From: a virus
Lineage: Duplodnaviria; Heunggongvirae; Uroviricota; Caudoviricetes
Direction: 5' to 3' (one strand)
IMG/VR virus record: IMGVR_UViG_3300033149_001657
Coordinates: 1 to 64,000 of that record
Length of the DNA stretch: 64,000 nt
The translations under genes and the position numbers were made by a program. Under the pieces are notes generated by a model. That model was not told the DNA's origin, ran no database searches, and was given only the letters and a program-made list of their open reading frames with translations. Below are positions 17,522 through 63,512 of the stretch, in pieces. Positions within the stretch are counted from its first letter, which is position 1. Every line of letters begins with the position of its first letter.

Positions 17522-17821
17522 TTAGAGTTTAAGCATTAATAGAAGCCTTTCAATCTTTTCATTGAATGACTTTAATTCAAAAGAATATAGAACAGGATAA
17601 GGTAATGACTCTGATAATACAGAAAGAGCTTTTCCATCTGTCATTTTCTTCTTATCTATCATCTCTCTGATAACTTTCTTGAGATAAAGAAGGTTCCCTA
17701 ATAGAATCTCATCAAGTGTCTCAAGTCGTATTAAGCGTTTATTAAAATACTTAATTAATAGAACATATAGAACGTGTGCAGTCAATCCATCAACATATGA
17801 TTCAGCTCCATACACGTTCAT
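17522..17821 (-). CDS. hypothetical protein
   Basis: 99-aa ORF with a 4-nt overlap. Confidence 0.35.
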   Translation of the reverse strand: MNVYGAESYVDGLTAHVLYVLLIKYFNKRLIRLETLDEILLGNLLYLKKVIREMIDKKKMTDGKALSVLSESLPYPVLYSFELKSFNEKIERLLLMLKL

Positions 17822-18327: not shown

Positions 18328-18344
18328 ACTAAGTATTAGTACCC

Positions 18345-40235: not shown

Positions 40236-40286
40236 CTCCTAGTGTTTGAAAGGGATAGTAACTAAAAGTATTAATAAGCTTTGGGA

Positions 40287-40316
40287 TTATGCAACAATCT
40301 TACTAAGCATATTGTA
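40287..40316. promoter_or_regulatory. early palindromic motif, copy b
   Basis: ttaTGCAACAatCTTACTAAGcatattgta plus A9. Confidence 0.45.
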
Positions 40317-40323
40317 AAAAAAA

Positions 40324-40336
40324 AGATAGTAACTAT
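40324..40336. promoter_or_regulatory. GATAGTAACTATC junction motif (perfect) followed by a 9-nt A/T run
   Basis: Between the stop of 40339-40755 and palindrome copy b. In the transcript the 5-bp-stem hairpin plus U9 looks like a weak terminator. Confidence 0.3.
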
Positions 40337-40338
40337 CT

Positions 40339-40755
40339 CTAGTTATCCTCTAGATAGATATGGAAGTAACAATAGAACATTGGTAGCTCATATATGTCAT
40401 CCTCATCTGTCTCTATTTCTTCAATAGGTTCAAAGAAATCATCATCCATCCTTATTCCATCCTCAAGAGCATCCTTGAAAGCTTTGACAAAGTCTTCCTC
40501 TGTAAGGTTCCTTATCTCATCTTCATATTGCTTGAACAAATCCTCGTTTATAGGAACATAGTCACTAGCTCTTAGCTCTTCCTCTAGTATATCTATTATG
40601 TCGGATACTGTCTCTCTATAGTCTATTGGAAAGCCAACTGGTAGACAGGCTACTAGATTCTCCTCTGCAAAGGCATGTCCATGTCCTTGAAAAAAGCTTG
40701 GATCTCCATTATACGTTTCATCTAGCTCTATTACGAATCTAACCATCTGGATCAC
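40339..40755 (-). CDS. early-region acidic protein (GTG start)
   Basis: Preceded by palindrome copy c and the TAGTAACTAT motif 9 nt before GTG. Confidence 0.4.
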   Translation of the reverse strand: MIQMVRFVIELDETYNGDPSFFQGHGHAFAEENLVACLPVGFPIDYRETVSDIIDILEEELRASDYVPINEDLFKQYEDEIRNLTEEDFVKAFKDALEDGIRMDDDFFEPIEEIETDEDDIYELPMFYCYFHIYLEDN

Positions 40756-40797
40756 CAGAACATAGTTACTAACCTAATTGATATTTAAATCTATATG

Positions 40798-40827
40798 TTA
40801 TGCAACAATCTTAGTAAGAGTGTTGTA
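40798..40827. promoter_or_regulatory. early palindromic motif, copy c
   Basis: ttaTGCAACAatCTTAGTAAGagTGTTGTA plus A11. Confidence 0.45.
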
Positions 40828-40847
40828 AAAAAAAAAAGAAAAGAGAA

Positions 40848-41213
40848 TTATGTTGTATTCGATTGAATCATGTCTAGTAGAGTATCAACAAAGTTCTCAT
40901 TGTAAGGAATATACTCATTTGATCCTCCACTGTAATCTTTGAAATCTCTAGCTCTCCTAATCAACATTGAATTCATCAACTTGTATCTAACATCTCCAGT
41001 ACTAAAGTAGAAGACTCTACCATCATTGACTTCAAAGAATCCACTTATAAAGAAGTGTCCTTTATGAAACTCAATCCTCTTTATGTAAGGCTTCAAGATC
41101 CTCCGTATGTCTTTGGTAAAGGTTCTGTAGAATCTTCTAAATTGTTCTGTCTCTCTAGCACTACTCTCAAATCCATCTTCCAACATGTCAAGACTCTTTA
41201 GCTTCATCTTCAA
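40848..41213 (-). CDS. early-region protein
   Basis: Preceded by palindrome copy d. Confidence 0.4.
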   Translation of the reverse strand: MKMKLKSLDMLEDGFESSARETEQFRRFYRTFTKDIRRILKPYIKRIEFHKGHFFISGFFEVNDGRVFYFSTGDVRYKLMNSMLIRRARDFKDYSGGSNEYIPYNENFVDTLLDMIQSNTT

Positions 41214-41258
41214 TTACCCTGAACAAGGATTATTACTGTCTCTTTATAAGACTTTACG

Positions 41259-41288
41259 TTATGCAACATACTTAGTAAGGATGTAGTA
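41259..41288. promoter_or_regulatory. early palindromic motif, copy d
   Basis: ttaTGCAACAtaCTTAGTAAGgatgtagta. Confidence 0.4.
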
Positions 41289-41308
41289 AAATACGAATCA
41301 TAAAAAAG

Positions 41309-41743
41309 CTAGGAAGCTTCTGTATCCTGTTCAGAAGCTTCACTAGACGATGTATCTAGTTCGTTCTCTGGTTCTGATGTCCATAAAAAATTTGGTGGTA
41401 AAGGGAGTTTAGGTCTTCCTACCTTCTCATCAAGAGCTTCCCTAGTTATCTTTAGGAAACTATCTAGATCAACTCCATACTCAATCATTAGATCGTTTAT
41501 CTTTTCTAGTATAGATCTTAGCTTCACTAGCTCATCAATCTGAGCTGTTTTCCTTCCAGCAAAGTGTAGAGCTTCCTCCACACTATCGAATCCTGTATAT
41601 TTCCACTCTTTTCTTATCAGTACATCGATTGTTTCTGAATCAGTTGATTCCTTTACTTCAACCTCTAGACCTCTAACATAGAATTTCCTGATGTTCTCTG
41701 CTCTTATCTGTTTCATCAGATCCATCAAACTTGAACCAAACAT
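41309..41743 (-). CDS. early-region protein
   Basis: Preceded by palindrome copy e. Confidence 0.4.
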   Translation of the reverse strand: MFGSSLMDLMKQIRAENIRKFYVRGLEVEVKESTDSETIDVLIRKEWKYTGFDSVEEALHFAGRKTAQIDELVKLRSILEKINDLMIEYGVDLDSFLKITREALDEKVGRPKLPLPPNFLWTSEPENELDTSSSEASEQDTEAS

Positions 41744-41793
41744 TTCAATTCCTTCCGAACCAAAGTCAGTATCTAGACTTATAAAGATTAAGG

Positions 41794-41825
41794 TTATGCA
41801 ACGAGCTTACTAAGGTTGTTGCATT
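41794..41825. promoter_or_regulatory. early palindromic motif, copy e (perfect arms ATGCAAC / GTTGCAT)
   Basis: ttATGCAACgagCTTACTAAGgttGTTGCATt plus A9. Confidence 0.45.
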
Positions 41826-41841
41826 AAAAAAAAAGGAAAGA

Positions 41842-42408
41842 TTACATGTAGTCGATATTGTTAGCTTGTAGATTGATTATGTCCCATCCAGTTACTCCTA
41901 ATAGATTCACTGCTCTATCAAGATAGAACCCTACTAGACCAAACAGAGCTTGAGCATTATGCTTATAGACTGTTTTGGCATATCTAAGAGCATCAGCTAC
42001 TGATCTAAAGTATCTAATCTTGATTTCTCCATAGAGTCCATGATTACGAGTCCTAACCTCAGAATCCACATCACAAGTCATAGATCCCTTAATAGATTCC
42101 ATGTTTACAGGAACTCCTCCACAGTATCGATATGATACATAGATCTTCATCTCATCAGAGTCCAGACTCATGTTCTCATACTCATTAGCTGATCTGAGAT
42201 AGTCACTATTTAGAGATCTAGGAGATACTACGATCTCAGTCTCCATCACCACTGGGTATGGATCATTGTCATATTTTTCATCTAGTTCCCTCATGTCTAT
42301 AGCTTCACATATCAGACCCAGATAGATATCCTTATCGTCATCCAGTTGACACTTGAATGATTCATCGTCTATGTAGATAACGTTCTCATCCAGTTCCAAT
42401 ATCCTCAC
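41842..42408 (-). CDS. early-region protein (188 aa)
   Basis: Preceded by palindrome copy f, a CTTATATTT box, the TAGTAACTAAGG motif and an AGGTGAT SD. Confidence 0.4.
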   Translation of the reverse strand: MRILELDENVIYIDDESFKCQLDDDKDIYLGLICEAIDMRELDEKYDNDPYPVVMETEIVVSPRSLNSDYLRSANEYENMSLDSDEMKIYVSYRYCGGVPVNMESIKGSMTCDVDSEVRTRNHGLYGEIKIRYFRSVADALRYAKTVYKHNAQALFGLVGFYLDRAVNLLGVTGWDIINLQANNIDYM

Positions 42409-42462
42409 GTCAAATCACCTAGACCTTAGTTACTAGACCTTACAAATATAAGCCTAGTGGTT

Positions 42463-42490
42463 TTGCAACAGTCTTAGTAAGGATGTTGTA
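42463..42490. promoter_or_regulatory. early palindromic motif, copy f
   Basis: tTGCAACAgtCTTAGTAAGgaTGTTGTA. Confidence 0.45.
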
Positions 42491-42639
42491 TTACTTAGAT
42501 CTCAATGCTGGCTGAATAATAAGCATAGCAACTAAAGATCTAGCTTGGTTCTCTGGAAAGTGTTGAAAGAAATATTTGATCTTCTCCTCATCAGTCATGT
42601 CTTTTGTTCTTCGATAGATTTCTCCTAAAGTCATCTTCA

Positions 42640-42915
42640 TTACTTATTACCTCTTGGTTTTCTAAAGAATAAGGTTATTCTCAAGACATCATTGCCTAAT
42701 GCAGTTGGTTTCAGCTTAGTGGACCTGAAATATTCATACCCTAAACCTTTCATCTTCTTCTTTATCTCATCCATTTTCCTATTGATTAAATCCCGATCTC
42801 CATAAACTCCAATGCTAGCTCTGATGTATTCACCTTTGTAATAAACCGAAGGATGAGTTACCCAATAGCTATTACAGCAAGTCTGATCTACTCTCCACCA
42901 CTCAGTTGAGCTCAT
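42640..42915 (-). CDS. early-region basic protein
   Basis: Preceded by degenerate palindrome copy g and a GATAGTGACTAT motif. Confidence 0.4.
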   Translation of the reverse strand: MSSTEWWRVDQTCCNSYWVTHPSVYYKGEYIRASIGVYGDRDLINRKMDEIKKKMKGLGYEYFRSTKLKPTALGNDVLRITLFFRKPRGNK

Positions 42916-42963
42916 ATCGAATCACCGACACATAGTCACTATCTCTGCTTTTAAGACTTAGGT

Positions 42964-42990
42964 TTATGCAACATATTTGTGTGAATAGAC
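42964..42990. promoter_or_regulatory. early palindromic motif, copy g (degenerate right arm)
   Basis: ttaTGCAACAtatttgtgtgaatagac. Confidence 0.25.
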
Positions 42991-43016
42991 TTATACTTGT
43001 TTATCACTGTTCATAT

Positions 43017-43184
43017 TCATATTCTCTCTGTCCTGACTGACATCCAATCCACTGGATTATCTCCACACGAAATAGCTGAAGCTAAGTCTTCTTCAAAAAA
43101 TTCGATAGCTTCAGATTCAGCTTCTTCTTCATTATCAGCTTCCAACTCACATTCCCACGAAATTCTAACTCTGTACTTTGGCAC
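43017..43184 (-). CDS. small acidic protein (55 aa, GTG start) found by manual translation
   Basis: Downstream of palindrome copy h; GGTGAT SD 7 nt before GTG; below the ORF-track size cutoff. Confidence 0.3.
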   Translation of the reverse strand: MPKYRVRISWECELEADNEEEAESEAIEFFEEDLASAISCGDNPVDWMSVRTERI

Positions 43185-43233
43185 TTAAATCACCAGAACC
43201 TAGATAAGCATATCACTATATAAGATTAAGGGT

Positions 43234-43263
43234 TTTGCAACACACTTAGTAAGACTGTTGCAT
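43234..43263. promoter_or_regulatory. early palindromic motif, copy h
   Basis: ttTGCAACAcaCTTAGTAAGacTGTTGCAt. Confidence 0.45.
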
Positions 43264-43431
43264 CAGATCATCTAGCACTTTGATATATTCTTCTAACCAT
43301 CTCAGGTACATGTTTCTTGATAAAGTTGTAATCTGGTTTGATATTGTGTTTTTCACAGCTTTCAATGTATTTCTTTACCCATTTGATACCGATGTCCCAA
43401 GATTTGTGTAGAGTAATCAAAGTCATCATCT

Positions 43432-43934: not shown

Positions 43935-44681
43935 ATGGTTAGACCGAGAAAAATCCATATAAGCAAAGAACAGATGAGAATTTGGTTAGAAAATGGAATG
44001 AGCTATAGAGAAATAACACGAGAAATTAAAAAGCTCTATGGCTTAAAATTTGACCCCTCAACGATATATAGGCATACCGTAAGACTCGGACTAAAAGACA
44101 AAAATATACACAAACAATATAAAGACTTTTGTAGAGAACACAAGAAAAAAGTTAAGAGAATCAATACACATTTAGCGACTAAAGCTAATTGCTATATGGA
44201 CATCACAGAGATAAGCTTTAGATCACAAAAGGGCAAACATAAGAGATCAGTTAAACGATATTTTGTGAGCTTAAAGGTAGAGAAAAAACTATATCTTTAT
44301 TACATCAAAGATCAAACAAAAGCTTCAATCCTAACAGCTATGATACATCTAAAGGAATTTATGCCAGCAAATCCGATTTGTTTAGTTGATACACAATTTA
44401 ACCCAAAGCTTCCCGAAAGATCAGAGATAACATTTTGTAACACAGAGAAATGGCATCCAATTAAAAATATGGTTGAAAAACATCACGGATTCAAGACAAA
44501 TATATACGCTAAATTCTGGAAGTTCAAGACCGTATCTTACTCAAAGATGAACGATGAATCTAAAAGACAGCTCCTAAGGATATACATTGAAACGATAGAA
44601 CGTAATGAACACATTGAGATAATCAACAAGGATGAAATGATAACAGAGATATGTAGATTAGCCGAAGCTCAACAACTATAA
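43935..44681 (+). CDS. basic HTH-domain protein, candidate transcriptional regulator (alternatively transposase-like)
   Basis: N-terminal helix-turn-helix MSYREITREIKKLYGLK..STIYRH. The only plus-strand gene in the early region; flanked by inverted copies of the palindromic motif (43809-43838 and 44701-44731). Confidence 0.45.
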   Translation: MVRPRKIHISKEQMRIWLENGMSYREITREIKKLYGLKFDPSTIYRHTVRLGLKDKNIHKQYKDFCREHKKKVKRINTHLATKANCYMDITEISFRSQKGKHKRSVKRYFVSLKVEKKLYLYYIKDQTKASILTAMIHLKEFMPANPICLVDTQFNPKLPERSEITFCNTEKWHPIKNMVEKHHGFKTNIYAKFWKFKTVSYSKMNDESKRQLLRIYIETIERNEHIEIINKDEMITEICRLAEAQQL

Positions 44682-44995: not shown

Positions 44996-46399
44996 CTAGA
45001 ATAGGACAAGTGGTTTTCTCCTTGTTCTAGCTACCTTGTAATAGATATCAGCAGTTTGTCTGTTCTCTTCTATATCCCTAAGAGAAAGCATCAATGCAGT
45101 TACTCTATCATCTCCCTTTCTCTTATCCCATGTATAGAGTCTAAGCTCATTTAATAGTGGTTGAAATTCCTCTGGTACTAAGACTTTCTCTTTTTCAAAC
45201 AAAGTCTTCATTCTAACCTGTAGTGTTCCAAGTTCCTTAGCTAGATCAACAGCTTCAGTCATTATTCCTCTCATCCGTAGTCTATCCACTGTTCTCTGAG
45301 ATTCTCCTTTAGGATTCAAATCCACAAATACATAGTCTGGTCTATATCTCAAGGCATAAGCTTCTATCCAATCCTGTATGTTCTCATATTTGATTCTATT
45401 CCATTCAACTACATCAATGATTCTATACATATCGTCGACCTTGTTAGCAACTACAATAACAGACAGATCTCTATATCCGTAGTCTATACCAAATATGATC
45501 TTACCATTTTTCATCTCAGAATCATATCTAAACTTATGTATTCCAATAGAACACTTTCTAATGTCATCTATTGGAACCACAGTATTGGTAACTGGGTATG
45601 GAATACCCTCCCAGAACACTCTGAACTGTTCCTCAGTAAGATTTCTCTTAGCCTCTTCTATCTCCTCTTCTGTAAATCTAGGACAGTCCATAGCTGACCA
45701 TGAGAATCTAGCCCATGTAGTAGGTTTCCTCTGATCTTCAGATAGATCAAAATAATCTGGATATGTCTTCTTGTCCATCCACATCTCAACAAACTTTGAC
45801 GTGTATTCCATTGGAGTACCACTGAGAATGATTAAAGAATCATCGAATCCACCAACAATACGATAAGTATCGTTTATAGTGAAGTCATCTACTAATGCAG
45901 CTTCATCTATTATAACAGCTGGCACATGTTTACCCTGAATAGATTTGAGTGACAGAGGAAGAGCTCTAACTACGGACTTGGTCTTAAATCTTGTAATAGT
46001 CTTTAGAACGTCACCATCTATCACTTCACCAAATATCTCATTCTCTTTGAGAGGAACAGCTGAATACTCATATAGTGATCTAGACTGCTCAGCTGATCCA
46101 GACACTATAACTACATCAAATTTCTTCCTATGATAGTAACTATAAACCAAAGCTAACCACAAAGCTATGCATGCCAGTAGTTTACTCTTTCCAGTGCCTC
46201 CTGCCGAAACTATCATGATTCTTCTTAGTTTTAATTCTGGAAGATATGACATCACTCTAGCTTGATATGGAAATGGCTCTTGATGATATAAGTCTCTGAA
46301 AAAAGAAGAGGGATCTTTGTACCACTGAACTATCTTTAGTTGTATTGGTATTGTCATAAGTCTATCCTTCTGAGAATACTTCTTCCCATCTCTCCACAA
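44996..46399 (-). CDS. terL: terminase large subunit (TTG start, overlaps small subunit)
   Basis: Walker A SAGGTGKSK; Walker B AVIIDEAALV; C-terminal nuclease-like acidic motifs (IDYGYRD, D..D). Confidence 0.8.
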   Translation of the reverse strand: MWRDGKKYSQKDRLMTIPIQLKIVQWYKDPSSFFRDLYHQEPFPYQARVMSYLPELKLRRIMIVSAGGTGKSKLLACIALWLALVYSYYHRKKFDVVIVSGSAEQSRSLYEYSAVPLKENEIFGEVIDGDVLKTITRFKTKSVVRALPLSLKSIQGKHVPAVIIDEAALVDDFTINDTYRIVGGFDDSLIILSGTPMEYTSKFVEMWMDKKTYPDYFDLSEDQRKPTTWARFSWSAMDCPRFTEEEIEEAKRNLTEEQFRVFWEGIPYPVTNTVVPIDDIRKCSIGIHKFRYDSEMKNGKIIFGIDYGYRDLSVIVVANKVDDMYRIIDVVEWNRIKYENIQDWIEAYALRYRPDYVFVDLNPKGESQRTVDRLRMRGIMTEAVDLAKELGTLQVRMKTLFEKEKVLVPEEFQPLLNELRLYTWDKRKGDDRVTALMLSLRDIEENRQTADIYYKVARTRRKPLVLF

Positions 46400-46901: not shown

Positions 46902-47639
46902 CTATTGAAATTCAAAATCCATTATAACACTTATAGCTTGATTCTCTCCAACTACCACTGTTGATCCAGTAAACTCATGGAACTTAATGTCTCCAGGAGA
47001 AGAAATGTATCCTTCAGTTATAGCACTGAAATTAGTGTAGGTTCCAGGAACTTCAATTCCAGTTCCTGTTTGCATTACACGTAAGGTAGTTTCATTTATT
47101 ATGGTATTAGCTGTCAACACCATAATAGTTGAAGACCCATCTACTGTAGCACCAATGTATGCAATATAAGTATCATAGTCGTCACCTATAGCTCCTAGTC
47201 TAGATGCACATATTACATTGCCATCTTCATTGAGACCTGAAAAAGCAAACTTGACTTCTAGTATAAGATCCTGATCCGAACCTAATACTATAGTGGCATT
47301 AATCGAATTGTGATATTCACTAGGAGAGTTAGAACTACCACACATTACAATCGAATATGATCCAGGAGTAGATATAGTAGTCGATGTAATCACCAGTGTG
47401 TTATTGTTTCTTGTAGGAGTCTCTATATCTATAGTGGTTAATGAACCATCTTTAATAACTCTCATTTCATCTATTGGATAGTATCCAGTAATTCCACCCA
47501 CTAGACCAGCTACTTGTTTCTTACCCCAAGTAGTTACTGTCTGAGATGGTTCAATTGTACATCCTATGGTACAGTCAAGCTTTCTATCAATTATGTAGTA
47601 TTCAAACATTTCATCTATTTTAATAGGTATATTTACCAT
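46902..47639 (-). CDS. Ser/Thr-rich beta-structured virion-associated-like protein (paralog of 47652-48107)
   Basis: Shared segment GKKQVAGLVGGITGYYPIDE vs GKEQIAKLLGGIGAYSINQ. Confidence 0.4.
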   Translation of the reverse strand: MVNIPIKIDEMFEYYIIDRKLDCTIGCTIEPSQTVTTWGKKQVAGLVGGITGYYPIDEMRVIKDGSLTTIDIETPTRNNNTLVITSTTISTPGSYSIVMCGSSNSPSEYHNSINATIVLGSDQDLILEVKFAFSGLNEDGNVICASRLGAIGDDYDTYIAYIGATVDGSSTIMVLTANTIINETTLRVMQTGTGIEVPGTYTNFSAITEGYISSPGDIKFHEFTGSTVVVGENQAISVIMDFEFQ

Positions 47640-47651
47640 ACTATATCACTC

Positions 47652-48107
47652 CTAAGTTACTTGGAAATCTACATCAGCCCACCATTGTTGACCAGATGAA
47701 ATAGTTATATCTATACTAATAGAATTGTGAACATTAACTGTGTCTCCAGAATTTCTACACTTAATCCAGGTGTATTGTCCAGCTGTGGTCCAAGGATTTA
47801 GAGAGTTACTTACTCTCAGAGTACCCGTAGCTATGTAAGATGTAGAAGCACTTTTCCATCCTCCAGTATCAGTACCTATCTGGTTAATTGAATAAGCACC
47901 TATCCCTCCAAGTAGTTTAGCTATCTGCTCTTTGCCCCAATCTGTTAATGAAGCATGACACTCCTTTCCAACTATTTTACAAAGAAACTGTTTCCATAAT
48001 GGAACTTTCACATCTATTCTTTCATCACGTACTATCCTTCCTGTCTCTTTGTCAACTACAACTATTCTAAGAGATTCCTTAATTTTAAGTGATTCTCTCA
48101 TATACAT
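47652..48107 (-). CDS. paralogous Ser/Thr-rich protein; start trimmed to internal Met
   Basis: The track ORF extends to 48224 through a hydrophobic junk N-terminus overlapping the plus-strand rSAM start. The internal ATG (MYMRESL, or MRESL at 48101) has a GGAGTG SD. Confidence 0.4.
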   Translation of the reverse strand: MYMRESLKIKESLRIVVVDKETGRIVRDERIDVKVPLWKQFLCKIVGKECHASLTDWGKEQIAKLLGGIGAYSINQIGTDTGGWKSASTSYIATGTLRVSNSLNPWTTAGQYTWIKCRNSGDTVNVHNSISIDITISSGQQWWADVDFQVT

Positions 48108-48207
48108 CACTCCAGTTATCTTAATAAATAATCCTCCATTCAGATAAATCTTTTTATAAGAAGAAATATAAACAATAACGAAAATAACAATACAAAGAGG
48201 TGATTGA

Positions 48208-49455
48208 ATGCCTATACTAATCAAAATGAATCTTGGATGTAATTTTGAGTGTGAGTATTGTTATCAGAAACCAATTAGAAAGCTAAAAGATAAAGAATGG
48301 AATCTTAAAAGAGTTAAAGAGACAATTAGAAATCTAATATTAACCATGCCAAGAGGATCTAATCAACAGATAGTTGTTCATGGAGGAGAACCATTAACTA
48401 TGCCAATAAATATACTTGAACAGTTACTAGCTCTTTCTTACGAGCTTACTGGTAAATCTAGTATACAAACAAATGGATATCTAATAACTGATAAACATAT
48501 TGAACTATTTAAGAAATACAAGACTAGCGTAGGAATATCAGTAGATGGTCCATTTCAATGTAATGTTTTACGTGGTAAAGGAAACTTGAAAGATAGAAAG
48601 AAACAAACAGAGAGAGTACTTAAGAACTTAAACAATCTTGTAGAAGCTGGTGTTTCTACTTCAGTAATAACAGTAGTACATAAGAAAAATGCAATTGGAA
48701 TAAATAGAGACTTATTAAAGAGTTTTATTTTGGATCTTCATAAGAAAGGTATCCATGGAAGACTGAATCCATGTGGAACAGATGATCCAGAGATCTCTCT
48801 TACTATTGAAGAAGCTATAGATTTCTATACTGACATGTACAAGTTTATGGAAGAGAATGGAATCTATGGATGGTCACCATTCATCGATATATTAAATTCA
48901 CTACAGAGAAAATCATGTGTATGTACATTTAGTGGTTGTGATCCATACTGTACGCCATCAGCTATTTCAGTACTCCATGATGGATCTCTTGGAGTATGCC
49001 TTAGATTATACAATGATGGTAAAGTCTATCTAAGAGATACTACACCTACTTCAATGAGAACACAACTCCTTAAAGAGACAGAATGTAAAGGTTGTAAATG
49101 GTTTGATTATTGTAAGGGAGGATGTAGTGGACTTAGTATAAATTCAGATTGGAGACACAAGGATAGATTCTGTGAAGTATACAAAGCTCTATTTGAATTA
49201 GCACATAACACTCTAAAGTTTGTTGGAATACACCCCCCATCCGTATCACAAATCTCAAGATCAAGATACGAACATTTAGATCATGGTATTAGACACCTTG
49301 ACAGTGATATTGAAAACGATCATACGGATGGAATCAAGCACTCAGACACTGGAACCACTCACCTAGATAGTAACTTCTACTCAAAGTCTGATCATTCGGA
49401 TGGAGAAAGACATGTAGATGGACCAATAGAACATTTAGATAGTAATTGGAGGTGA
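48208..49455 (+). CDS. radical SAM / SPASM-domain enzyme with C-terminal His/Asp-repeat tail
   Basis: Motifs CNFECEYCY; GGEPL; SPASM-like CKGCKWFDYCKGGCSG; roughly 60-aa tail with repeats HLDxG/HLDSN/HSDG/HTDG. Confidence 0.7.
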   Translation: MPILIKMNLGCNFECEYCYQKPIRKLKDKEWNLKRVKETIRNLILTMPRGSNQQIVVHGGEPLTMPINILEQLLALSYELTGKSSIQTNGYLITDKHIELFKKYKTSVGISVDGPFQCNVLRGKGNLKDRKKQTERVLKNLNNLVEAGVSTSVITVVHKKNAIGINRDLLKSFILDLHKKGIHGRLNPCGTDDPEISLTIEEAIDFYTDMYKFMEENGIYGWSPFIDILNSLQRKSCVCTFSGCDPYCTPSAISVLHDGSLGVCLRLYNDGKVYLRDTTPTSMRTQLLKETECKGCKWFDYCKGGCSGLSINSDWRHKDRFCEVYKALFELAHNTLKFVGIHPPSVSQISRSRYEHLDHGIRHLDSDIENDHTDGIKHSDTGTTHLDSNFYSKSDHSDGERHVDGPIEHLDSNWR

Positions 49456-49460
49456 AATAA

Positions 49461-50234
49461 ATGGAGCCTTTTACTAGAATATTATGGTTTGATCAGAAGA
49501 CAAAGCAGATATGGAAAAGACAAATTGAACAAGCTAGAAGACTCTATGAAGCTGTAGAGTTTGCTACTTTTGAAGCTGGTATGAGAGATGTCTATGTTAT
49601 GCACATATATCCAGAGAAGATATCTCAGCAACTAGAAATGATAGCTAAAGGTAAGTATGTTTTTCTTCCTATTCTGAAGAGTAAACGCTATTCTGGATTC
49701 TCTCACAGACATATACCACCAAAACCTGGTGATCCATATTTCATTTACGGAGTAGTAGCCAGAAATCTGGAGGATGCTGAGAGGTTCAAGGAATGTTCCA
49801 TTGGAAACAAGGTAGATCATGTAGAGATTGGAAGATTACTTGGATATCCTGAATGTTGTACAGAATTCTTTGATAAAGTCTGGAATAAGAAAAGCATAGA
49901 TCCAATCTATGAAGCTTATGGTTCAGAGACTTCTATTCATCCATTCTGCAATCAAGCTTTAAGATACTTTGGCATTAGACTAACACCTCATCTTGTTTGC
50001 TCTCCAACATGCAAGAGAACTATTGAAATGGGTAAGAAGTGGTTCAAAGTAGCTGAATCAATAGACTATGGATCTGCTCATACTCTTTTGAAGTTACTAT
50101 CCATGCCGTTTAAATGGTCATGTCTAAATGGATGTGCAATTATAGACACTGAACTATTTAGAGGTGTAACTAATTCGGATAAATGTTCAGAGGAAAAGGT
50201 TGTGATAAATCATGGATGGAACAAAGAACTTTAG
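49461..50234 (+). CDS. Cys-rich protein (GYPECC motif), probable partner of the rSAM enzyme
   Basis: SD GGAGGTGA then ATG; motifs LLGYPECCTEFF, CSPTCKR, CLNGC. Confidence 0.45.
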   Translation: MEPFTRILWFDQKTKQIWKRQIEQARRLYEAVEFATFEAGMRDVYVMHIYPEKISQQLEMIAKGKYVFLPILKSKRYSGFSHRHIPPKPGDPYFIYGVVARNLEDAERFKECSIGNKVDHVEIGRLLGYPECCTEFFDKVWNKKSIDPIYEAYGSETSIHPFCNQALRYFGIRLTPHLVCSPTCKRTIEMGKKWFKVAESIDYGSAHTLLKLLSMPFKWSCLNGCAIIDTELFRGVTNSDKCSEEKVVINHGWNKEL

Positions 50235-50874
50235 ATATTGTGTAGCAACTCTTGTTGGGAGACACAAGATCTATAGTACGAAAGATTTTATAGAACATTT
50301 AGAAAGAGTTACTGTACAGCCAGAGGTTATCGTTGTTTCATCCATACCAGAGATACATGAGATATTCTTCAGATATCAAAAGAATATACCAGTAGTTGGA
50401 ATAACTGGAGATCATGATGAAGGAAGAAATAGAATAGTAGACACTACTTCTGCTAGGGAATCTCTTAGACAATATATTATAAAGAATAACTATGAATGGT
50501 CACTATGGTTGGATAATGACATACTAGTACCATCCAATATAACTGAAAAATTCTTATCGTATCTAAGAAATAATCCTGAAGTTAAAATGGTTCATTCATA
50601 TCATCCAGCTAGACAGTATGGAGAGGAACTTAGACATGGAATCGGTAGTTCTTTTATTCACAAAGATCTTCTAGAAGCTTATCCATTTACTTATGCAGAA
50701 ATTAAAGGTCATTATTTAGGCGATGACCAGATTTGGTTACTAGTGATTAACCAATTAACTAGTATATATTATCCAAGATCCATCATAAGAGGAACACTAT
50801 TTGATCTTAAACATAAACGTGAAGATGGTACAGTAGCTTCCTTATCTGACAAATATAGAGATCAATTACTTTAG
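50212..50874 (+). CDS. DxD-motif nucleotide-sugar-transferase-like protein (GT-A-like, tentative), paralog 1
   Basis: Motif NYEWSLWLDNDILVP; paralogous to the next gene. Confidence 0.35.
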   Translation: MDGTKNFRYCVATLVGRHKIYSTKDFIEHLERVTVQPEVIVVSSIPEIHEIFFRYQKNIPVVGITGDHDEGRNRIVDTTSARESLRQYIIKNNYEWSLWLDNDILVPSNITEKFLSYLRNNPEVKMVHSYHPARQYGEELRHGIGSSFIHKDLLEAYPFTYAEIKGHYLGDDQIWLLVINQLTSIYYPRSIIRGTLFDLKHKREDGTVASLSDKYRDQLL

Positions 50875-50883
50875 TGACTAGAA

Positions 50884-51504
50884 ATGGAACCTTATATAGT
50901 TCTTACTCCATTTGGAGACCACAAACATTATGCTCTTAAAGAGTTTATTAGATCATTGAATAAACTTAGACCTCAACCAGAAATGAAGATTATATGTGCA
51001 GACTTGGACACAAAATACAAAGATGAATTAGAAAGTTACGATCTAGTAGTATATTACAGTCCAGAGATCTTCTCCCCTCCATCTTACCTGGAACGAATAT
51101 GTATGTCAAGAGAAATCCTAAGAAAGAAGTTCATTTATTCCAACTATGAATGGTCATTATGGATAGATTCTGATATTATAGTACCTCCAGATACTCCAAG
51201 AATTCTATATAAAATAGCTAAAGATAGTAACTGTCTGGTAGTCTCAAATGGATATCCAGGAAGCTACGGTCATGAACATGAGATCTGGCATGGATCTGGT
51301 GTTATGTTAACTAACAAGCTAGCTTGTACTGGTTCTAGATTTTGGGTAGCAGATTTCAATGGCAAGCACTTAAGTGAAGACTTTGTATTTCTAAGTATTT
51401 TAGATCAAGGTAGTTATTTTATAGAACAATATACTGGAAGAAAAGCCAGAATAGTGGGAGAATTCGTGAAAGTCAAACATCTAAGCCATAAACATAGTCA
51501 CTAA
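50884..51504 (+). CDS. DxD-motif transferase-like protein, paralog 2
   Basis: Motif NYEWSLWIDSDIIVPP; convergent overlap with the repeat-protein stop. Confidence 0.35.
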   Translation: MEPYIVLTPFGDHKHYALKEFIRSLNKLRPQPEMKIICADLDTKYKDELESYDLVVYYSPEIFSPPSYLERICMSREILRKKFIYSNYEWSLWIDSDIIVPPDTPRILYKIAKDSNCLVVSNGYPGSYGHEHEIWHGSGVMLTNKLACTGSRFWVADFNGKHLSEDFVFLSILDQGSYFIEQYTGRKARIVGEFVKVKHLSHKHSH

Positions 51505-52544
51505 GCTGTGTGTATATCACTCCAATCCTGATGAGGGTTAGCTCCATCTTGATGATCAGTCCAATCCTGATAGCTATCTGTCCAGTCTAGATGTGGTACT
51601 CCGTCATCACTATATACTACATTACTCCAATCTTCATGAGGAACACTATCTGTCCAGTCTTGATGTGGAGCTCCTCCACCACCTGCATCATTATGATCAG
51701 TCCAGTCCAGATGAGGAGGACCTGAATCTGAGTATGTTGCATCCGACCAGTCGCTATGAGCTACAGAATCTGTCCAGTCTGAATGTATACCATCTGTCCA
51801 GTCCTGATAGTCAGAGTGATATGGTGGTACATCTGAATAATCAAACCAATCAGTGTGGATACCATCAGACCAGTCATTATGACTATCAGTATGTGGTACA
51901 TTTGAATGACTGGTATCCGACCAATCAGTGTGTGGTCCAGAATCCGTATAGTCAGACCAGTCACTATGCACGTCAGACCAATCACTATGACTGTCAGTAT
52001 GAGGAGTATCTGAATGAGAACTATCCGACCAGTCTGTATGTGGTCCAGAATCAGAGTGTCCAGTATCCATATGATCACTCCAGTCCTGATACGTATCAGT
52101 CCAGTCACTGTAGAATGTCCAGTTCAAACCATCTGTTGTCTGCACAGACTCAGGTGCCAGAAACATCATCTTTACTTCATCTGTTGTGTGGAATGCCTCA
52201 AGTATTGAAGACTTCGATTTGAAGCTACCTACTGTCTGGATAGACTCATCTTTGAATAATGAAGTTAACAACCTATCATCTAAAGATACATCATGCTCTG
52301 TCAGGAATTTGTCTCCCCATGCAACAGCCCATATACTCCCATTATGGTATACTCTTACTGGACTAGCTAGTGGTGAAATAGTAGATACAAGTCTGAGACT
52401 GATGGTCTCTCCTCCAGTAAAGATTTTGACAAATGTACCTTCGGTAATGTCTTTCTCCCATGATAGAACTTTCCATCTAAGAACACGAGACTTTCCTTTG
52501 TATCCCACTCTTACCTTAGACCAATCAGTGCTCATCTTCATCAC
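51501..52544 (-). CDS. DW[ST]D / PH-repeat protein (347 aa) with globular N-terminal domain
   Basis: About 18 repeats of DWSD/DWTD separated by ..PH[TSLQ]. Overlapping shadow ORFs in other frames are side effects of the DNA repeats. Confidence 0.5.
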   Translation of the reverse strand: MMKMSTDWSKVRVGYKGKSRVLRWKVLSWEKDITEGTFVKIFTGGETISLRLVSTISPLASPVRVYHNGSIWAVAWGDKFLTEHDVSLDDRLLTSLFKDESIQTVGSFKSKSSILEAFHTTDEVKMMFLAPESVQTTDGLNWTFYSDWTDTYQDWSDHMDTGHSDSGPHTDWSDSSHSDTPHTDSHSDWSDVHSDWSDYTDSGPHTDWSDTSHSNVPHTDSHNDWSDGIHTDWFDYSDVPPYHSDYQDWTDGIHSDWTDSVAHSDWSDATYSDSGPPHLDWTDHNDAGGGGAPHQDWTDSVPHEDWSNVVYSDDGVPHLDWTDSYQDWTDHQDGANPHQDWSDIHTA

Positions 52545-55500
52545 TAAAGATCAGTTCTAATCCATATTTGCCCTTCAGCTGGTGACGATGGATCTGATGT
52601 TCGATTCTCCAGTCTCAGACCTATTGCCTGACCAGCTAGAAAGAGATCCTTCCATCTGTAAGTTGAGGTTCCCAAGTCGTAAGTATTGTCTGTAGATGGC
52701 AGTAACGACACATTAAGATTTAGATTCGTAGTTGTTAGTCTTAACAACTCTGAGAGAGAAGTATTCAATATTCTGAACTTATCCGATACAACTATGCTCC
52801 TTGAATATCTTGATTTACCAGCCAGGTATAGAGCCCTTATTTCCTCTTCAGTTAAGGCTCGGTTGTAAATGCGAATATCGTCAGCAACTCCATCTAATCG
52901 CCATCCTACACAGTTACCAACAACTAATTTAAGGTTGTTATCAATACTACCAGTTACGGATGAAATATCTAAATATCCAGACTGCTGAACACCATCGATA
53001 AATGCATAACATTGGCCCAAAGCTCTGTTAAATACCACTGCAATATGAACCCATTTATTACGCCAATCAAGCGGTCGAGAACCTACATCACAAGGTACAA
53101 CATCAAAAACAGTATTCCCTTCGACGTCTCTAATTGCACATTTAATACCGTTTGATACATACCCATGCCCTATTTGAAATCCAGGATGTGGGTTTACTCC
53201 ACCATGAGCGTTTCCATGCCAGATACAACATGTCGTTTTTGGGTAGGTATAATCTCGGTGATAGAACCATCCAATCACAGTAAAACTGTTGGTTCCAAAA
53301 TCTAAACTTGAAGATGGACTACATTCTAGCTGGTCATTCTTACCGTCGAAACTTAAAGCTTTACCAAACTTCCCATCACACCAGTTGTCGCTGTAAACCG
53401 TAGTACCTTCCCCTTCATCGAAGCGTAGGCAAAGAACACGACCTCCGCCGACATCTTCGCCTTGATAAAGTTGCTGGATTTCCTCTTCGTTTAAGACTCT
53501 GTTGTATATGCGAACCTCATCAATAAGGCCATCCCAAGAGTCCATTGTCCTGTACCTTCCTACTTTGAGTGTGTTATCAGGTGAAATCCTTGGGTTGATA
53601 GTTCGTGGTGTGGAATCTCCCAAACTTCCATCCACATAGAGTAGTATCTGGTCAGATGTCACCACAAAGACAACATGATGCCATTCGCCGTCCGAAGTTC
53701 CGCTTACAGTAACATATTTACTAGCTGATCCGTCTGCTATTCGTCCACGAATTGCATTAGAATTCGGTAGGTATATCATGTAGCTTATATTATTGTCAAC
53801 GGTTTCGTCATCGTAACTGACCAACCCTCTATAACCGCTTACGACTGTAGTCTTAAACCATGCACTAATGGTGAATTCGGCTGACAGGTCTAATGAATCA
53901 TCATGAGGTACTTTGACATAGTCACTTACGTCGAAGCTCAACGCCTTCCCATATTTCCCATCGACCCAAGAAGCCCCGTAAACTGTTCCCGAAAGAGTAC
54001 CATAAACAGTTCCATCATTCCCATAAGGAGATTCGTCATAGACCGAAGTTCCAGTTCCTTCTTCAAATGGTAAGTAAAGCACAAGTCCATAGTCACTTGA
54101 ATAAGCATCGATGTATGGATTGTCCAGAATACCACTTATGAAGGCATCTCCACCAATATAGATATCTCTAGAGAGTCTTAAGTCTTGCCATCTATAGCTT
54201 GCTGAGCCGAGGTCTCTAGAAGCATCAACATCAGGAATTAAATCTTGGGCAAAAGAAGCAATGTTTTTTAGAATTTTTGAAGCATCTATAACTTCGGTTC
54301 CGCCTATCTTGAGGGAGCCTAAATCTCCAATACCCGCTAAGTAAAGGTCTTTCCACTTATAGCTTGATGATCCGAGGTCGTAGGCATTATCTCTCGAAGG
54401 AATAAGAGAGTAGGATGGAATAGGAATCATTACAAGCCAGTCTATGTAGACTCTTCCTGGAATATATTCGGGGTCGTCTCCTCCATGAAACCCATCGTCG
54501 TTGTTAGTTGCATTACTCCCAAAGTGGAACCGAACATCATCTTCTGGGTCCCAATCTGCATTTACTATTCCAGCATCAATTATTTGATAGCTTGTAGTTA
54601 ATTTATTTAAGATATCTACAGAGAATTCGGTTGTAGCATCTGTCCAATTATAGATAAGGATCCTTGCATCTCCAAGGCTTCCAGACATTTTAGCTCTGAG
54701 AAGAAGCATATATTTTCTGCCTGTCATGAAGCCTTCCATATTTCTAATAGAAAGAGAACCAGTCCACCCCTCCCAGTAGGTAAATGCTCGACCAAAGTTA
54801 GCTTCTACATCATCTACATACTCGCTTCCTGAATCTAAGCTAGCATTCCACAAGTCATTTTTACCAGCAACACATGAAAGCATATCATGAATGAATCCGA
54901 ACCCTACAACGTGATCTAAGAAAGCCCTTCCACCTACATATAGATCTTTCCACCGATAGCTTGATGAACCTAGATCTCTTGAATTATCTGCATCAGGGAG
55001 CAGGGTCTGAGCTACTGAGACAATATTCTGCAAGATTCTTCCGCTTGTAAGAACTTCGGTTCCAGCGACTTTGAGAGAGCCGAGATCGATTGCTCCAGCA
55101 AAATAGCCATCCTTCCACTTATAACTTGAACTACCGATATTATAAGCATTATTTGCTCCAGGTAATATCTGACCAGTATCCCCTCTTAACACTATTGTTT
55201 TAGTCCCGTCTGAGTTTCTTACATCAAGGTAATGTCCGTCAGGACTTCCCCAAACCTCAACTCTCTGAGCAATTCTTAGAACCAAATCCGCCCAGATGGC
55301 AGGATAGTTGCCAGCTCTTCCCTCTTCATCTATCGTTTCGAATTTTCCTATTTTAATCGGATGAGCTCCACAATAGAATTGTGATGGTTCACCAGTAGTC
55401 ACTATAGTTAATATGTTCTTCAATCTTCTAGTAGAGTCAATAACTTCGGTTCCACCTATTCTTAGAGATCCTATGTCAGCGTATCCGCTGAGAAAGGCGT

Positions 55501-55735
55501 TAAGCCACTTATATGTTGAAGATCCTAACGAGTATGTTCCACTAGTCTTAGGATAAATGTTTCCAGCATTCTGGATTGGATTACCATCCATATCTATATA
55601 TGTTGGTCTAAGATAGATAGAGTGATCTCCAATCTTGAATCCTTTCTTTAGTATATTCTTAACAAGAGATTCTAACCTATCTGAATCTAAAAGAAAGAGA
55701 TTACCAGATTCAATGTCATACTTAAAGTCTATCAT
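52544..55735 (-). CDS. tail fibre / receptor-binding protein with two LamG (ConA-like) domains
   Basis: Six repeats of the [YR][DN]LGSS[ST]Y[KR]WKDLYLAG type at the N-terminus; LamG-like blocks (TISAWFKTT..EWHHVVFVV..LYVDGSL and TVIGWFYHRD..WVHIAVVFN..FIDGVQQ). Confidence 0.6.
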   Translation of the reverse strand: MIDFKYDIESGNLFLLDSDRLESLVKNILKKGFKIGDHSIYLRPTYIDMDGNPIQNAGNIYPKTSGTYSLGSSTYKWLNAFLSGYADIGSLRIGGTEVIDSTRRLKNILTIVTTGEPSQFYCGAHPIKIGKFETIDEEGRAGNYPAIWADLVLRIAQRVEVWGSPDGHYLDVRNSDGTKTIVLRGDTGQILPGANNAYNIGSSSYKWKDGYFAGAIDLGSLKVAGTEVLTSGRILQNIVSVAQTLLPDADNSRDLGSSSYRWKDLYVGGRAFLDHVVGFGFIHDMLSCVAGKNDLWNASLDSGSEYVDDVEANFGRAFTYWEGWTGSLSIRNMEGFMTGRKYMLLLRAKMSGSLGDARILIYNWTDATTEFSVDILNKLTTSYQIIDAGIVNADWDPEDDVRFHFGSNATNNDDGFHGGDDPEYIPGRVYIDWLVMIPIPSYSLIPSRDNAYDLGSSSYKWKDLYLAGIGDLGSLKIGGTEVIDASKILKNIASFAQDLIPDVDASRDLGSASYRWQDLRLSRDIYIGGDAFISGILDNPYIDAYSSDYGLVLYLPFEEGTGTSVYDESPYGNDGTVYGTLSGTVYGASWVDGKYGKALSFDVSDYVKVPHDDSLDLSAEFTISAWFKTTVVSGYRGLVSYDDETVDNNISYMIYLPNSNAIRGRIADGSASKYVTVSGTSDGEWHHVVFVVTSDQILLYVDGSLGDSTPRTINPRISPDNTLKVGRYRTMDSWDGLIDEVRIYNRVLNEEEIQQLYQGEDVGGGRVLCLRFDEGEGTTVYSDNWCDGKFGKALSFDGKNDQLECSPSSSLDFGTNSFTVIGWFYHRDYTYPKTTCCIWHGNAHGGVNPHPGFQIGHGYVSNGIKCAIRDVEGNTVFDVVPCDVGSRPLDWRNKWVHIAVVFNRALGQCYAFIDGVQQSGYLDISSVTGSIDNNLKLVVGNCVGWRLDGVADDIRIYNRALTEEEIRALYLAGKSRYSRSIVVSDKFRILNTSLSELLRLTTTNLNLNVSLLPSTDNTYDLGTSTYRWKDLFLAGQAIGLRLENRTSDPSSPAEGQIWIRTDL

Positions 55736-62564: not shown

Positions 62565-63512
62565 CTAATATGGAAGATTAGCCCATGTACCACTGAAATC
62601 TTCAATCACCTTAATAGCATCATTTCCAGAGCTCGGTCTAGCTGAGAACGGGTACTCTCCCTCCACAGCATCAAGACCAGAGAGTTCATCTGGAAGCTCC
62701 CCAAACGTAACGTTGTTCAAAGTGATCTGTATTGTATGACTTGTCTTTATCAAATATACTTGTATAGTACATGTCTGTCTATTGATAACTATACTACTCA
62801 TTTGACCAAAGTTACCTCCAGTAGTCAGTCTTCCATTAACTTGAAGTCCTCCTTCCCTTATCTCAATTGGTCTATAGTCCTGAGCACCAGCTGACAGTCT
62901 AGCTTGAAGATTATTGTTAGTACTGATCTGAAGTCTAGTTATCATAGTAGCTGCAAACTGTCCATTTGGATGTATAACATCTATGCTTGAATGATAGAAT
63001 GAGAATGGTACAAGATTCATATTCAATGAAGGCTTGGATGATGCATTGGTAGGTATCGTTACTCCTCTACCAGCATAATTCAACTCTATCTGTACATCAG
63101 AACCTTGTTCAATAGTTATTTCAGCTGTATCTACTTTCATTCCATAGTATCCAAGACTGATGGTATTGCCATCCTCATCTGGATAGAGTCCTCTATAGAT
63201 GCTCATTGAAGGTAATGATGAAGCTGGAGAATACGTAACTGGAGTCGTAGAGGTATCAGTGGTAGATCCAAGAATATATTCAAATATTTTACCAGAAACC
63301 ATCTCTTGAGTCCATCTAGCAACTACTCCCTCTTCTAACCACGTAACTTTTCTCCAGTCTCTACTTCCACCAATCAGATCCTCTTCATTCCTATTTTCTG
63401 TAGTAGTAGCTGCCCAGTCTGTCAAGTAGTTAGGAAACGTGTTGGGAACAGTCCACTCTCCCCATGTATCCTCTTTTGCAAACTTAATCCACCTATCTGT
63501 GAAATAGCTCAT
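62565..63512 (-). CDS. putative major tail (tube) protein
   Basis: 315-aa beta-rich protein at the head of the tail module; SD GGTGGAGGAA; upstream 7-bp inverted repeat CCTAACA-CT-TGTTAGG. Confidence 0.4.
   Translation of the reverse strand: MSYFTDRWIKFAKEDTWGEWTVPNTFPNYLTDWAATTTENRNEEDLIGGSRDWRKVTWLEEGVVARWTQEMVSGKIFEYILGSTTDTSTTPVTYSPASSLPSMSIYRGLYPDEDGNTISLGYYGMKVDTAEITIEQGSDVQIELNYAGRGVTIPTNASSKPSLNMNLVPFSFYHSSIDVIHPNGQFAATMITRLQISTNNNLQARLSAGAQDYRPIEIREGGLQVNGRLTTGGNFGQMSSIVINRQTCTIQVYLIKTSHTIQITLNNVTFGELPDELSGLDAVEGEYPFSARPSSGNDAIKVIEDFSGTWANLPY

Follow-up and report, generated by a model that had tools for sequence, protein, structure and literature searches.

What does a radical S-adenosylmethionine (rSAM) enzyme modify when its gene lies beside the tail fiber gene of a virus? 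The question is raised by a 64,000-nucleotide stretch of DNA, positions 1 to 64,000 of IMG/VR virus record IMGVR_UViG_3300033149_001657 (hereafter the window), a tailed-virus genome with TerL at 44996-46399 and a tail tube gene at 62565-63512. There is an island of four plus-strand genes, encoding an rSAM enzyme with a SPASM domain, a DUF483 ("GYPECC") protein and two paralogous glycosyltransferases (GTs) of GT-A fold, which converges with the gene for a 347-aa repeat protein (51501-52544, minus strand). The coordinates of all five were reproduced exactly by our gene map, a six-frame list of open reading frames (ORFs). Within the island the first two genes are 5 nt apart, the second and third overlap by 23 nt and 9 nt separate the last two; at the convergent end the TAG of the repeat protein (51501-51503) overlaps the TAA of the second paralog (51502-51504). 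Among ORFs of at least 90 aa this is the sole multi-gene plus-strand block in the window, and GC skew is positive at 48-52 kb only. The initial annotation suggested that the island acts on the abutting repeat protein, and comparative genomics strongly supports that view. The linkage between enzyme and repeat array is, from the sequences compared, well supported. By analogy with known peptide-modifying enzymes, we consider it fairly probable that the block is a swappable fiber-tip module in which the rSAM enzyme matures the array, probably by staples between aromatic residues and Asp C-beta, followed by tailoring by the GTs.

The repeat protein had been described as carrying about 18 DW[ST]D...PH repeats. 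DW[ST]D repeats are indeed present, but they number 15 and are merely a subset of a more general unit, [His/Trp/Tyr]-x-Asp, which occurs in 45 copies in residues 145-343. In this protein 45 of 46 Asp residues have an aromatic residue at position -2, compared with a mean of 11.5 aromatic-x-Asp (sd 2.6, maximum 21) in 20,000 composition-preserving shuffles. Conversely, of 52 aromatic residues, 45 are followed at +2 by Asp and two more by Asn. Half of the array triplets abut directly. Over the whole protein there are 47 [H/W/Y/F]-x-D triplets, and the middle residue of 32 of them is Ser or Thr. No DNA-level tandem repeat was found in the gene; the array therefore did not arise by recent tandem duplication of DNA, and the pattern is kept at the protein level. 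This pattern matches the Omega1-X2-X3 pattern that defines the substrates of triceptide synthases, in which Omega1 is His, Trp, Tyr or Phe (PMC11499958). The start of the repeat-protein gene (GTG 52544 or ATG 52541) overlaps the TAG stop of the upstream fiber gene, which encodes two LamG domains, as TAGTGATG, which indicates that the repeat protein is translationally coupled to this fiber.

The association of enzyme and array was followed through IMG/VR, where 80 loci were retrieved with the rSAM alignment. All loci were then examined with profiles and for motif density (the rule requires one ORF in which 60 residues hold at least 8 Omega-x-D; a relaxed rule admits Asn at X3); 36 loci with a family-type rSAM formed the family set, and 54 loci with unrelated viral rSAMs served as controls. 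DUF483 adjoins the rSAM gene in 32 of the 36 family loci. Under the Asp-only rule an array is found in 30, usually ending at the rSAM start, and four further loci gain one when Asn is allowed. Overall, an array stands beside the rSAM in 35 of the 36, the single exception being cut by the contig end, while neither DUF483 nor an array occurs in any of the 54 controls. LamG-like ORFs lie near the rSAM in 9/35 family loci and 1/54 controls. The family loci span phages, archaeal-virus-like contigs, prophages and the Thermus phages Cumys and phiLo, and tblastn places the module in Cumys, phiMa and phiLo. Gene order varies: array and enzyme are convergent in the window and in L001, whereas in most other loci, among them the Anoxybacter fermentans prophage and Cumys, the array precedes the rSAM gene on a shared strand. 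The candidate array-bearing substrates are proteins of 280-1200 aa with folded N-terminal or LamG fiber domains; LamG fibers have the array as their C-terminus in two loci (L018 and L035), as does a Phage-tail_3 protein in another (L028). Furthermore, the partners are found fused to one another or to other modifying domains: rSAM with DUF483 (P0097), DUF483 with a class-I methyltransferase (often) and a GT-like protein with a sulfotransferase (P0174). In 31 pooled arrays (7,446 residues, with 1,760 aromatic residues, 1,253 of them His), the residue at +2 of the aromatic is Asp in 73%, Asn in 12% (together 85%) and Glu in 1%, while +1 is variable. The interchange of His, Trp and Tyr and the exclusion of Glu at X3 fit a reaction between ring and C-beta better than simple metal binding.

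Several loci depart from the usual arrangement. Tandem paralogous rSAM copies, two in each, are present in L033 (9989-12913) and L034 (9938-13354); the latter also has two separate array proteins (8726-9934 and 17024-18568), and long periodic "H[ST]DVSFVN" units are seen in some arrays. These arrangements suggest duplication of enzyme and substrate. At the end of a 541-kb contig (L005:1-12609), DUF483 and rSAM genes are followed by an H-x-D/N array ORF and adjoin genes for LamG/DUF2341 proteins of 3139 and 1628 aa, TatC, TatA, a sulfotransferase and two RlaP-like nucleotidyltransferases, which may represent a cellular, secreted version of the system. In phiLo (L009, MH673673.1; 11810-13072, minus strand) the rSAM gene and the DUF483 gene, which bears a "putative methyltransferase" annotation, are not preceded by an array; some 4.4 kb further downstream, however, the other strand encodes phiLo_137, a 421-aa ORF with 77 H-x-D that is cut at the locus edge. 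A genome-contig scan with a second DUF483 alignment returned one locus only, in a Chloroflexota metagenome-assembled genome, with the same trio of genes.

Two genomes share synteny with the window. The more distant one, L092 (TerL 56% identical), has a homolog of the N-terminal domain of the repeat protein with a non-repetitive C-terminus, and a p190 homolog directly follows in place of the island. This syntenic relative lacks both island and array. The closest relative, L091 (IMGVR_UViG_3300033156_000141), has a TerL 92% identical and neighboring proteins 93-96% identical to those of the window. Its DNA is 86.5% identical up to window position 46902; from about 47.5 to 55.0 kb there is essentially no DNA similarity, apart from an extra 79-nt match at 47456-47534, and similarity resumes over the fiber N-terminus, the only part of the fiber that is conserved. 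This divergence pattern indicates that the island, the repeat protein, the fiber C-terminus and the small genes p190 and p245 form one exchangeable host-range block. The island is accordingly not a free moron, but part of a swappable fiber-tip cassette. The same site in L091 (2956-8242) encodes a 241-aa Tyr/Asp/Ser/His-rich protein, a 197-aa ORF, a GT-B glycosyltransferase, a 174-aa ORF and two unrelated SPASM-type rSAMs of 419 and 424 aa with weak PapB/CbpB/HxsB-like matches. This cassette may be a second, independent fiber-tip maturation system.

The enzyme itself was correctly called. It matches PF04055 with 67 bits against a cut-off of 29.5, and C11, C15 and C18 of the CxxxCxxC motif are invariant in 34 homologs. 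The SPASM assignment, taken as Cx9-15Gx4C ... Cx2Cx5Cx3C ... C with two auxiliary clusters, also holds, the complete 7-Cys motif being invariant in all 34 (C244-x14-G259-x4-C264, C293-x2-C296-x5-C302-x3-C306 and C322; plus C239). Many, although not all, SPASM maturases carry a PqqD-like recognition element of the kind used for peptides that are made on the ribosome and modified after translation (RiPPs). This RiPP recognition element (RRE), considered in the initial annotation, is missing: the rSAM has no Pfam PqqD match, and an N-terminal RRE is precluded because CxxxCxxC begins at residue 11. Instead there is a C-terminal tail with eight H-x-D triplets, a motif like that of the array. We collected 225 homologs at E <= 1e-10 and examined the tails of 120, nearly all of which have an H-x-D tail. 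Close homologs carry "HxDG[IV]EH[LI]DGxxRHLDS" twice, and distant ones carry "HGDxPHGD" runs with up to 14 copies. Some homologs of 684-700 aa (P0052 and P0056) contain inserted LAGLIDADG/intein-type domains (PF14528, PF05204, PF00961).

The best NCBIfam matches of the rSAM are AmcB, DynA, anSME, YhhB and GrrM/OscB, all far under their cut-offs; XyeB and FxsB are also among the nearest curated cyclophane-forming families, and DynA and DarE/DarW score too. The models of XyeB, GrrM/OscB, FxsB, YhhB and AmcB, enzymes that form three-residue cyclophanes (3-CyFEs), gave 54-96 bits against cut-offs of 310-450. Against the PDB, the family profile matches anSME (4k36) at 6e-35 over the full length and the triceptide synthase ChlB at 5.5e-20. 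Membership in anSME was nevertheless rejected (90.6 bits against 349 for TIGR03942/NF010321), and its general base is not conserved. Asp277 of anSMEcpe reportedly has this role, a result attributed to Goldman et al. 2013; the equivalent position, after an auxiliary-cluster I Cys, is Leu, Met or Ile in 26 of the 34 members and Asp in 2. The residue that follows is Arg or Lys in all 34. This R/K266, next to the auxiliary-cluster Cys, may pair with the Asp of the substrate, by analogy with D214 of HtkB and Lys3. PADLOC reported viperin-core matches; a viperin/pVip identity was rejected (NF038283, 66 bits against 180), since the alignment is limited to the generic rSAM core (residues 10-163) and a full SPASM is present. 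Membership in the HXS system was likewise discarded, because there is a single rSAM, the HxsB and HxsC models are outside its 25 best NCBIfam matches and the motif differs. By these membership tests the system lies outside anSME, each 3-CyFE family, HXS and viperin. Judged from its sequence, the rSAM is a new family inside the anSME/cyclophane-synthase clade and outside every characterized family; with all family scores under their cut-offs, a function cannot be transferred to it.

The "GYPECC" protein matches PF04467 narrowly (25.4 bits, cut-off 25). We aligned 50 homologs, about half of which bear a precomputed PF04467 label; E33, R42, H82, H120, C133, D147, R168 and C184 are invariant, and such a set of His, Cys, Asp, Glu and Arg residues suggests an active or metal site, the invariant His and Cys being candidates for Zn binding or for Cys-His catalysis. 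The AlphaFold2 (AF2) model has a predicted local distance difference test score (pLDDT) of 95. Searches with the DUF483 profile against the PDB, and of BFVD, returned no match, and one apparent match in the literature proved to concern DUF4832. The DxD pair described in the initial annotation is borne out: the two proteins are paralogs (29% identity, E = 2e-20) with a conserved DSD/DND motif and a GT-A fold. In the 32-member family D97 (of WIDSDI) and H199 are invariant, and D95 and D166 (SED) nearly so. Paralog B has weak sequence matches to Mnn9, PBCV-1 A64R, Anp1 and GT2, and neither paralog reaches the CAZy or Pfam GT cut-offs (Anp1, 18.6 against 28.8 bits; Glycos_transf_2, 16.1 against 23.3). 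Such weak matches occur in just 5-6 of the 32 relatives, and a set of 1.84 billion proteins contains no more than 69 representatives of this very small family. By fold, generic GT-A enzymes (WrtF, Mnn9 and TarP) match best. For the virus GT-A enzymes PBCV-1 A64R and STIV A197, action on virion proteins has been proposed or reported. Among the scanned loci, GT-like genes are confined to the nearest relatives of the window, and no clear correlation was found across loci between GT presence and Ser/Thr at X2. Glycosylation of the array at the Ser/Thr of X2 is possible.

Four known systems help to place the module. The first is that of the triceptides, in which 3-CyFE rSAMs join an aromatic ring to the X3 C-beta of Omega1-X2-X3, His motifs such as HAA, HNR and HTK having been characterized (PMC11499958). 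Like XyeB, GrrM/OscB, FxsB, YhhB, HaaB, HtkB, ChlB and AmcB, the window rSAM combines rSAM and SPASM domains, 3-CyFEs are among its best NCBIfam and PDB matches, and its predicted substrate shares with theirs an often repeated triplet that begins with an aromatic residue, varies at the second position and is conserved at the third. However, 3-CyFE substrates are short leader-core peptides, whereas here a 347-aa (elsewhere up to 1200-aa) tail-fiber-associated protein is concerned, with 45 to more than 100 motifs per protein in the arrays and with Asp or Asn at X3. The window rSAM further differs in its substrate-like tail, obligate DUF483 partner and viral encoding, and the crosslink is suggested by analogy. 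The second is the HXS antiphage system, in which the His-x-Ser repeat protein HxsA is matured by the rSAMs HxsB and HxsC with HxsD, an undefined "+8 Da" type change being reported (PMC13128918). There, as is proposed here, an rSAM matures a full-size protein with repeats of His-x-small residue and needs a small partner or one without assigned function. Unlike this bacterial defense, which has two rSAMs, HxsD, five HxS repeats and a peptidoglycan-binding effector, the window has one rSAM of another family, a DUF483 partner, H/W/Y-x-D arrays of tens to hundreds and a tail-fiber context. The third is anSME, the closest solved full-length structure, which has the same three-cluster SPASM layout, lacks an RRE and abstracts a C-beta hydrogen on folded or large protein substrates. 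In contrast, the window enzyme has the H-x-D tail and Leu, Met or Ile in place of Asp277; no sulfatase-type C/S-x-P-x-R substrate was identified, no search having been made for one.

The fourth is an "rSAM module" already noted in prophages and in two Thermus phages, Cumys and phiMa, for which no function was assigned and DNA modification was suggested, with no mention of the repeat or of a SPASM/peptide-maturase character (PMC11437467). The Cumys module consists of the same three genes: its rSAM aligns with 99% of the query at 31.7% identity, DUF483 lies downstream (the homolog Cumys_11 carries a DUF483-domain annotation) and the array protein Cumys_13 upstream. Compared with Cumys, the window adds two GT-A genes, is inverted relative to the substrate gene and uses Trp and Tyr besides His. 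In our literature search, no paper was found linking rSAM/SPASM enzymes to tail fibers, H-x-D repeats or the crosslinking of phage structural proteins. We rate the window system as a new variant of rSAM-mediated repeat-protein maturation.

From these data a mechanism may be proposed. The 347-aa protein would be a fiber-associated structural protein whose C-terminal 200 residues form the array. In each triplet the 5'-deoxyadenosyl radical of the rSAM would abstract a side-chain hydrogen, most likely that of the Asp C-beta (the carbon attacked by anSME and the 3-CyFEs), which would then be joined to the aromatic ring two residues upstream; the resulting chain of small cyclophane staples would give a rigid, protected fiber tip. 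That the rSAM staples the array is proposed because of the Omega1-X2-X3 pattern, the aromatic interchange with Glu exclusion and the HXS precedent. The H-x-D tail, the obligate DUF483 or both may recruit or hold the repetitive substrate, replacing leader/RRE recognition. The two GT-A enzymes would add lineage-specific tailoring, for which Ser/Thr at X2 is a likely target, and methyltransferase or sulfotransferase domains take their place in other genomes. Array and enzymes would be inherited, lost and swapped together within the host-range cassette. What the sequences show is which genes are present, how the proteins fold, the statistics of the motif, the co-occurrence and fusion of the parts and the swapping of the cassette. 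We infer in this scheme that the array is the substrate, what kind of bond is made, what DUF483, the tail and the GTs do, and that the repeat protein enters the virion.

Several points weigh against stapling. Known triceptide substrates are short leader-bearing peptides, not proteins of 350-1200 aa, and Omega-x-Asp is not found among the characterized examples (HAA, HNR, HTK, YDR) in the accessible parts of that literature. The rSAM belongs to no characterized cyclophane-synthase family (for AmcB, 96 bits against a cut-off of 425), and its full-length sequence is closest to anSME, an oxidation enzyme and not a crosslinker. The bond type is assigned by analogy, and virion incorporation of the repeat protein is deduced from gene position and fusions. 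A HMMER homolog search with the repeat protein gave only its self-match, and a PHROG search with ten repeat proteins gave no match; the relatedness of the array proteins therefore rests on motif scanning, with a motif pattern that we defined ourselves. The aromatic and Asp/Asn array could also be an unmodified glycan- or metal-binding surface, and DNA modification is the function suggested by the authors who first noted the rSAM-DUF483 module (PMC11437467).

Among the alternatives, a different chemistry on the same array is the one that survives best, and we regard it as a less likely but serious possibility. The rSAM could carry out an anSME-like C-beta oxidation, an epimerization, C-O or C-N crosslinking as in DarE and DynA, or a change of the HxsA "+8 Da" type. 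Such a reaction would agree with anSME being the closest solved structure and sole full-length PDB match, with the scores of DynA and DarE/DarW, with the non-cyclophane mass shift that HXS rSAMs can yield on H-x-S repeats, and with family scores under cut-offs that allow no function to be transferred. However, the catalytic Asp277 of anSME is not conserved, and the strict pairing of aromatic and Asp/Asn at +2, with His, Trp and Tyr interchangeable, is predicted by a two-residue crosslink and not by a single-residue change.

That the array is an unmodified adhesin for host glycans or metal ions, the enzymes acting on the rSAM tail, another fiber component or a host surface molecule and having no more than the host-range cassette in common with it, appears unlikely. 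Trp, Tyr and His together with Asp and Asn are typical sugar- and metal-binding residues, the GT-A enzymes could glycosylate another target, and modification of the array is itself a deduction. This explanation would, however, leave several observations without a cause: the H-x-D motif in the enzyme's own tail, the co-occurrence in 35 of 36 loci from viruses infecting bacteria, archaea and Thermus in varied gene orders, the rarity of Glu at the Asp position (1%) and the joint loss of array and enzymes in L092.

Modification of phage DNA or of a nucleotide by rSAM-DUF483, with an unrelated repeat protein, is very improbable. Some cyanobacteria are reported to have homologs close to genes for deazapurine DNA modification, and fusions of DUF483 with a methyltransferase are reported as well (PMC11437467); the PADLOC viperin-core matches point the same way. 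Those matches, however, span the generic rSAM core alone, the full SPASM is typical of peptide and protein maturases, and the best matches are all protein-modifying enzymes. Moreover, in the window, in Cumys, in Anoxybacter and in many IMG/VR contigs the module lies in the tail-fiber region, away from the replication genes, and its third gene is an Omega-x-D protein. Equally hard to sustain is a multi-core RiPP precursor, cut into cyclophane peptides (toxin, signal or metallophore) and encoded by a moron outside the virion, since for all that triceptide and related precursors may hold several motifs and the island is oriented oppositely as many morons are, no protease or exporter is found among the island genes, the folded N-terminal domain is common to a non-repeat homolog at the same tail-module position, the repeat-protein gene is translationally coupled to the fiber gene, and LamG tail fibers of other phages include the array in the same polypeptide.

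The surroundings of the block are summarized in Table 1 together with its features. A Shine-Dalgarno-like AAAGAGGTGA sits 6 nt 5' of the rSAM ATG, and scans for sigma-70 promoters and terminators gave nothing above chance. On its other side the island is flanked by p245 and p190, which lie between it and the terminase genes; the p190 start is most likely the MRESL ATG near 48101. These paralogs (245 aa and about 150-190 aa, within 46902-48224 on the minus strand) have in common a "GK[KE]Q[VI]A.L[VL]GGI" segment, occur in 2-3 copies in L091 and L092, and had no match in Pfam and PHROG searches. They are 39-45% identical at the aa level to their L091 counterparts, against 92-96% for the neighboring TerL and p175, a divergence as rapid as that of the fiber tip. 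The only other plausible plus-strand gene (43935-44681, 248 aa) adjoins TerL in opposite orientation; its product is 93% identical in L091 and 39% in L092, and a Pfam search gave no match.

Elsewhere in the window, the non-structural part of the genome encodes a DUF2201 putative metallopeptidase and VWA-like protein (19923-21191, minus strand; 1.4e-38) and an RNA-ligase-domain protein (26995-28293, minus strand; 1.2e-13). In 40250-43270, short L091 segments (40-95 nt) each align by blastn to two to four places in the window, centered at about 40.3, 40.8, 41.3, 41.8, 42.5 and 43.2 kb, which suggests a dispersed repeated intergenic element among small genes. A tRNA search of the window found none. 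The 44-56 kb region, compared by megablast with 50,697 phage records, had no match, so there is no close relative among deposited phages.

Table 1. Window coordinates of the features discussed, and arrangement of the module in other genomes.
Feature	Position	Strand	Basis or arrangement
p245 and p190, small paralogous proteins	p245 46902-47639; p190 47652 to ~48101	-	ORF list, synteny of relatives
AT-rich divergent intergenic region between island and minus-strand p190	48102..48207	.	Sequence read
Radical-SAM/SPASM enzyme, 415 aa	48208..49455	+	Pfam Radical_SAM 2.9e-18; PHROG 1802 5e-36
C-terminal tail of the rSAM, eight H-x-D triplets	49273..49440, aa 356-411	+	HLD, HLD, HTD, HSD, HLD, HSD, HVD, HLD
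DUF483 "GYPECC" protein, 257 aa	49461..50234	+	Pfam PF04467; adjoins rSAM in 32/36 loci
GT-A-fold glycosyltransferase paralog A, 220 aa, WLDNDI DxD motif	50212..50874	+	Family alignment
GT-A-fold glycosyltransferase paralog B, 206 aa, WIDSDI DxD motif	50884..51504	+	AF2 pLDDT 96.3; weak sequence matches
Omega-x-Asp array, predicted substrate	51516..52112, aa 145-343	-	45 [H/W/Y]-x-D triplets
N-terminal non-repeat domain of the repeat protein	52125..52544, aa 1-140	-	Homologous to L092:6249-7433, itself without array
Tail-fiber protein, 1063 aa, two Laminin_G_3 domains	52544..55735	-	Pfam 1.9e-47; PHROG tail fiber/virion structural
L001, 92-kb viral contig with MCM			rSAM, GT-like, DUF483, then convergent 609-aa protein with 109 motifs beside fiber
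L003, 61.6-kb viral contig			rSAM with the gene for a 474-aa array protein immediately upstream, followed by DUF483, methyltransferase and two GT-like genes
L006, Anoxybacter fermentans prophage			Tape measure, LamG fiber, array protein of 385 aa with 60 motifs, then rSAM, DUF483, holin and amidase
L005 and L007, two additional contigs			Similar arrangement
Thermus phage Cumys (cultured)			Tail-collar fiber, small ORF, Cumys_13 (344 aa, 60 H-x-D), rSAM Cumys_12, DUF483 Cumys_11

In its widest form, which we put forward as tentative, our proposal is that phages and archaeal tailed viruses apply RiPP-type radical chemistry to their own virions, placing tens to more than 100 His/Trp/Tyr-to-Asp-C-beta staples along the fiber tip by means of an rSAM with an H-x-D tail and the orphan-fold protein DUF483, followed by glycosylation, methylation or sulfation, the whole being carried in a host-range cassette. 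Crosslinking by rSAM/SPASM enzymes has so far been seen almost solely in small peptide natural products and, recently, in one defense effector (HXS). If the proposal is true, RiPP-like chemistry would extend to virion architecture through a conserved and widespread viral module, and a function would be provided for DUF483 and for the unexplained "rSAM module" of Thermus phages and prophages. A leaderless enzyme for dozens of adjacent Omega-x-Asp motifs would also be attractive for peptide and protein stapling. The Thermus phages Cumys and phiMa, both cultured, carry the module and make these ideas testable. For the viruses themselves, the module, whose cassette is swapped between near-identical genomes, would represent a new route by which phages vary or harden their receptor-binding tips and, should the chemistry be confirmed, the array proteins would potentially form a previously undescribed class of hyper-crosslinked structural virion proteins.

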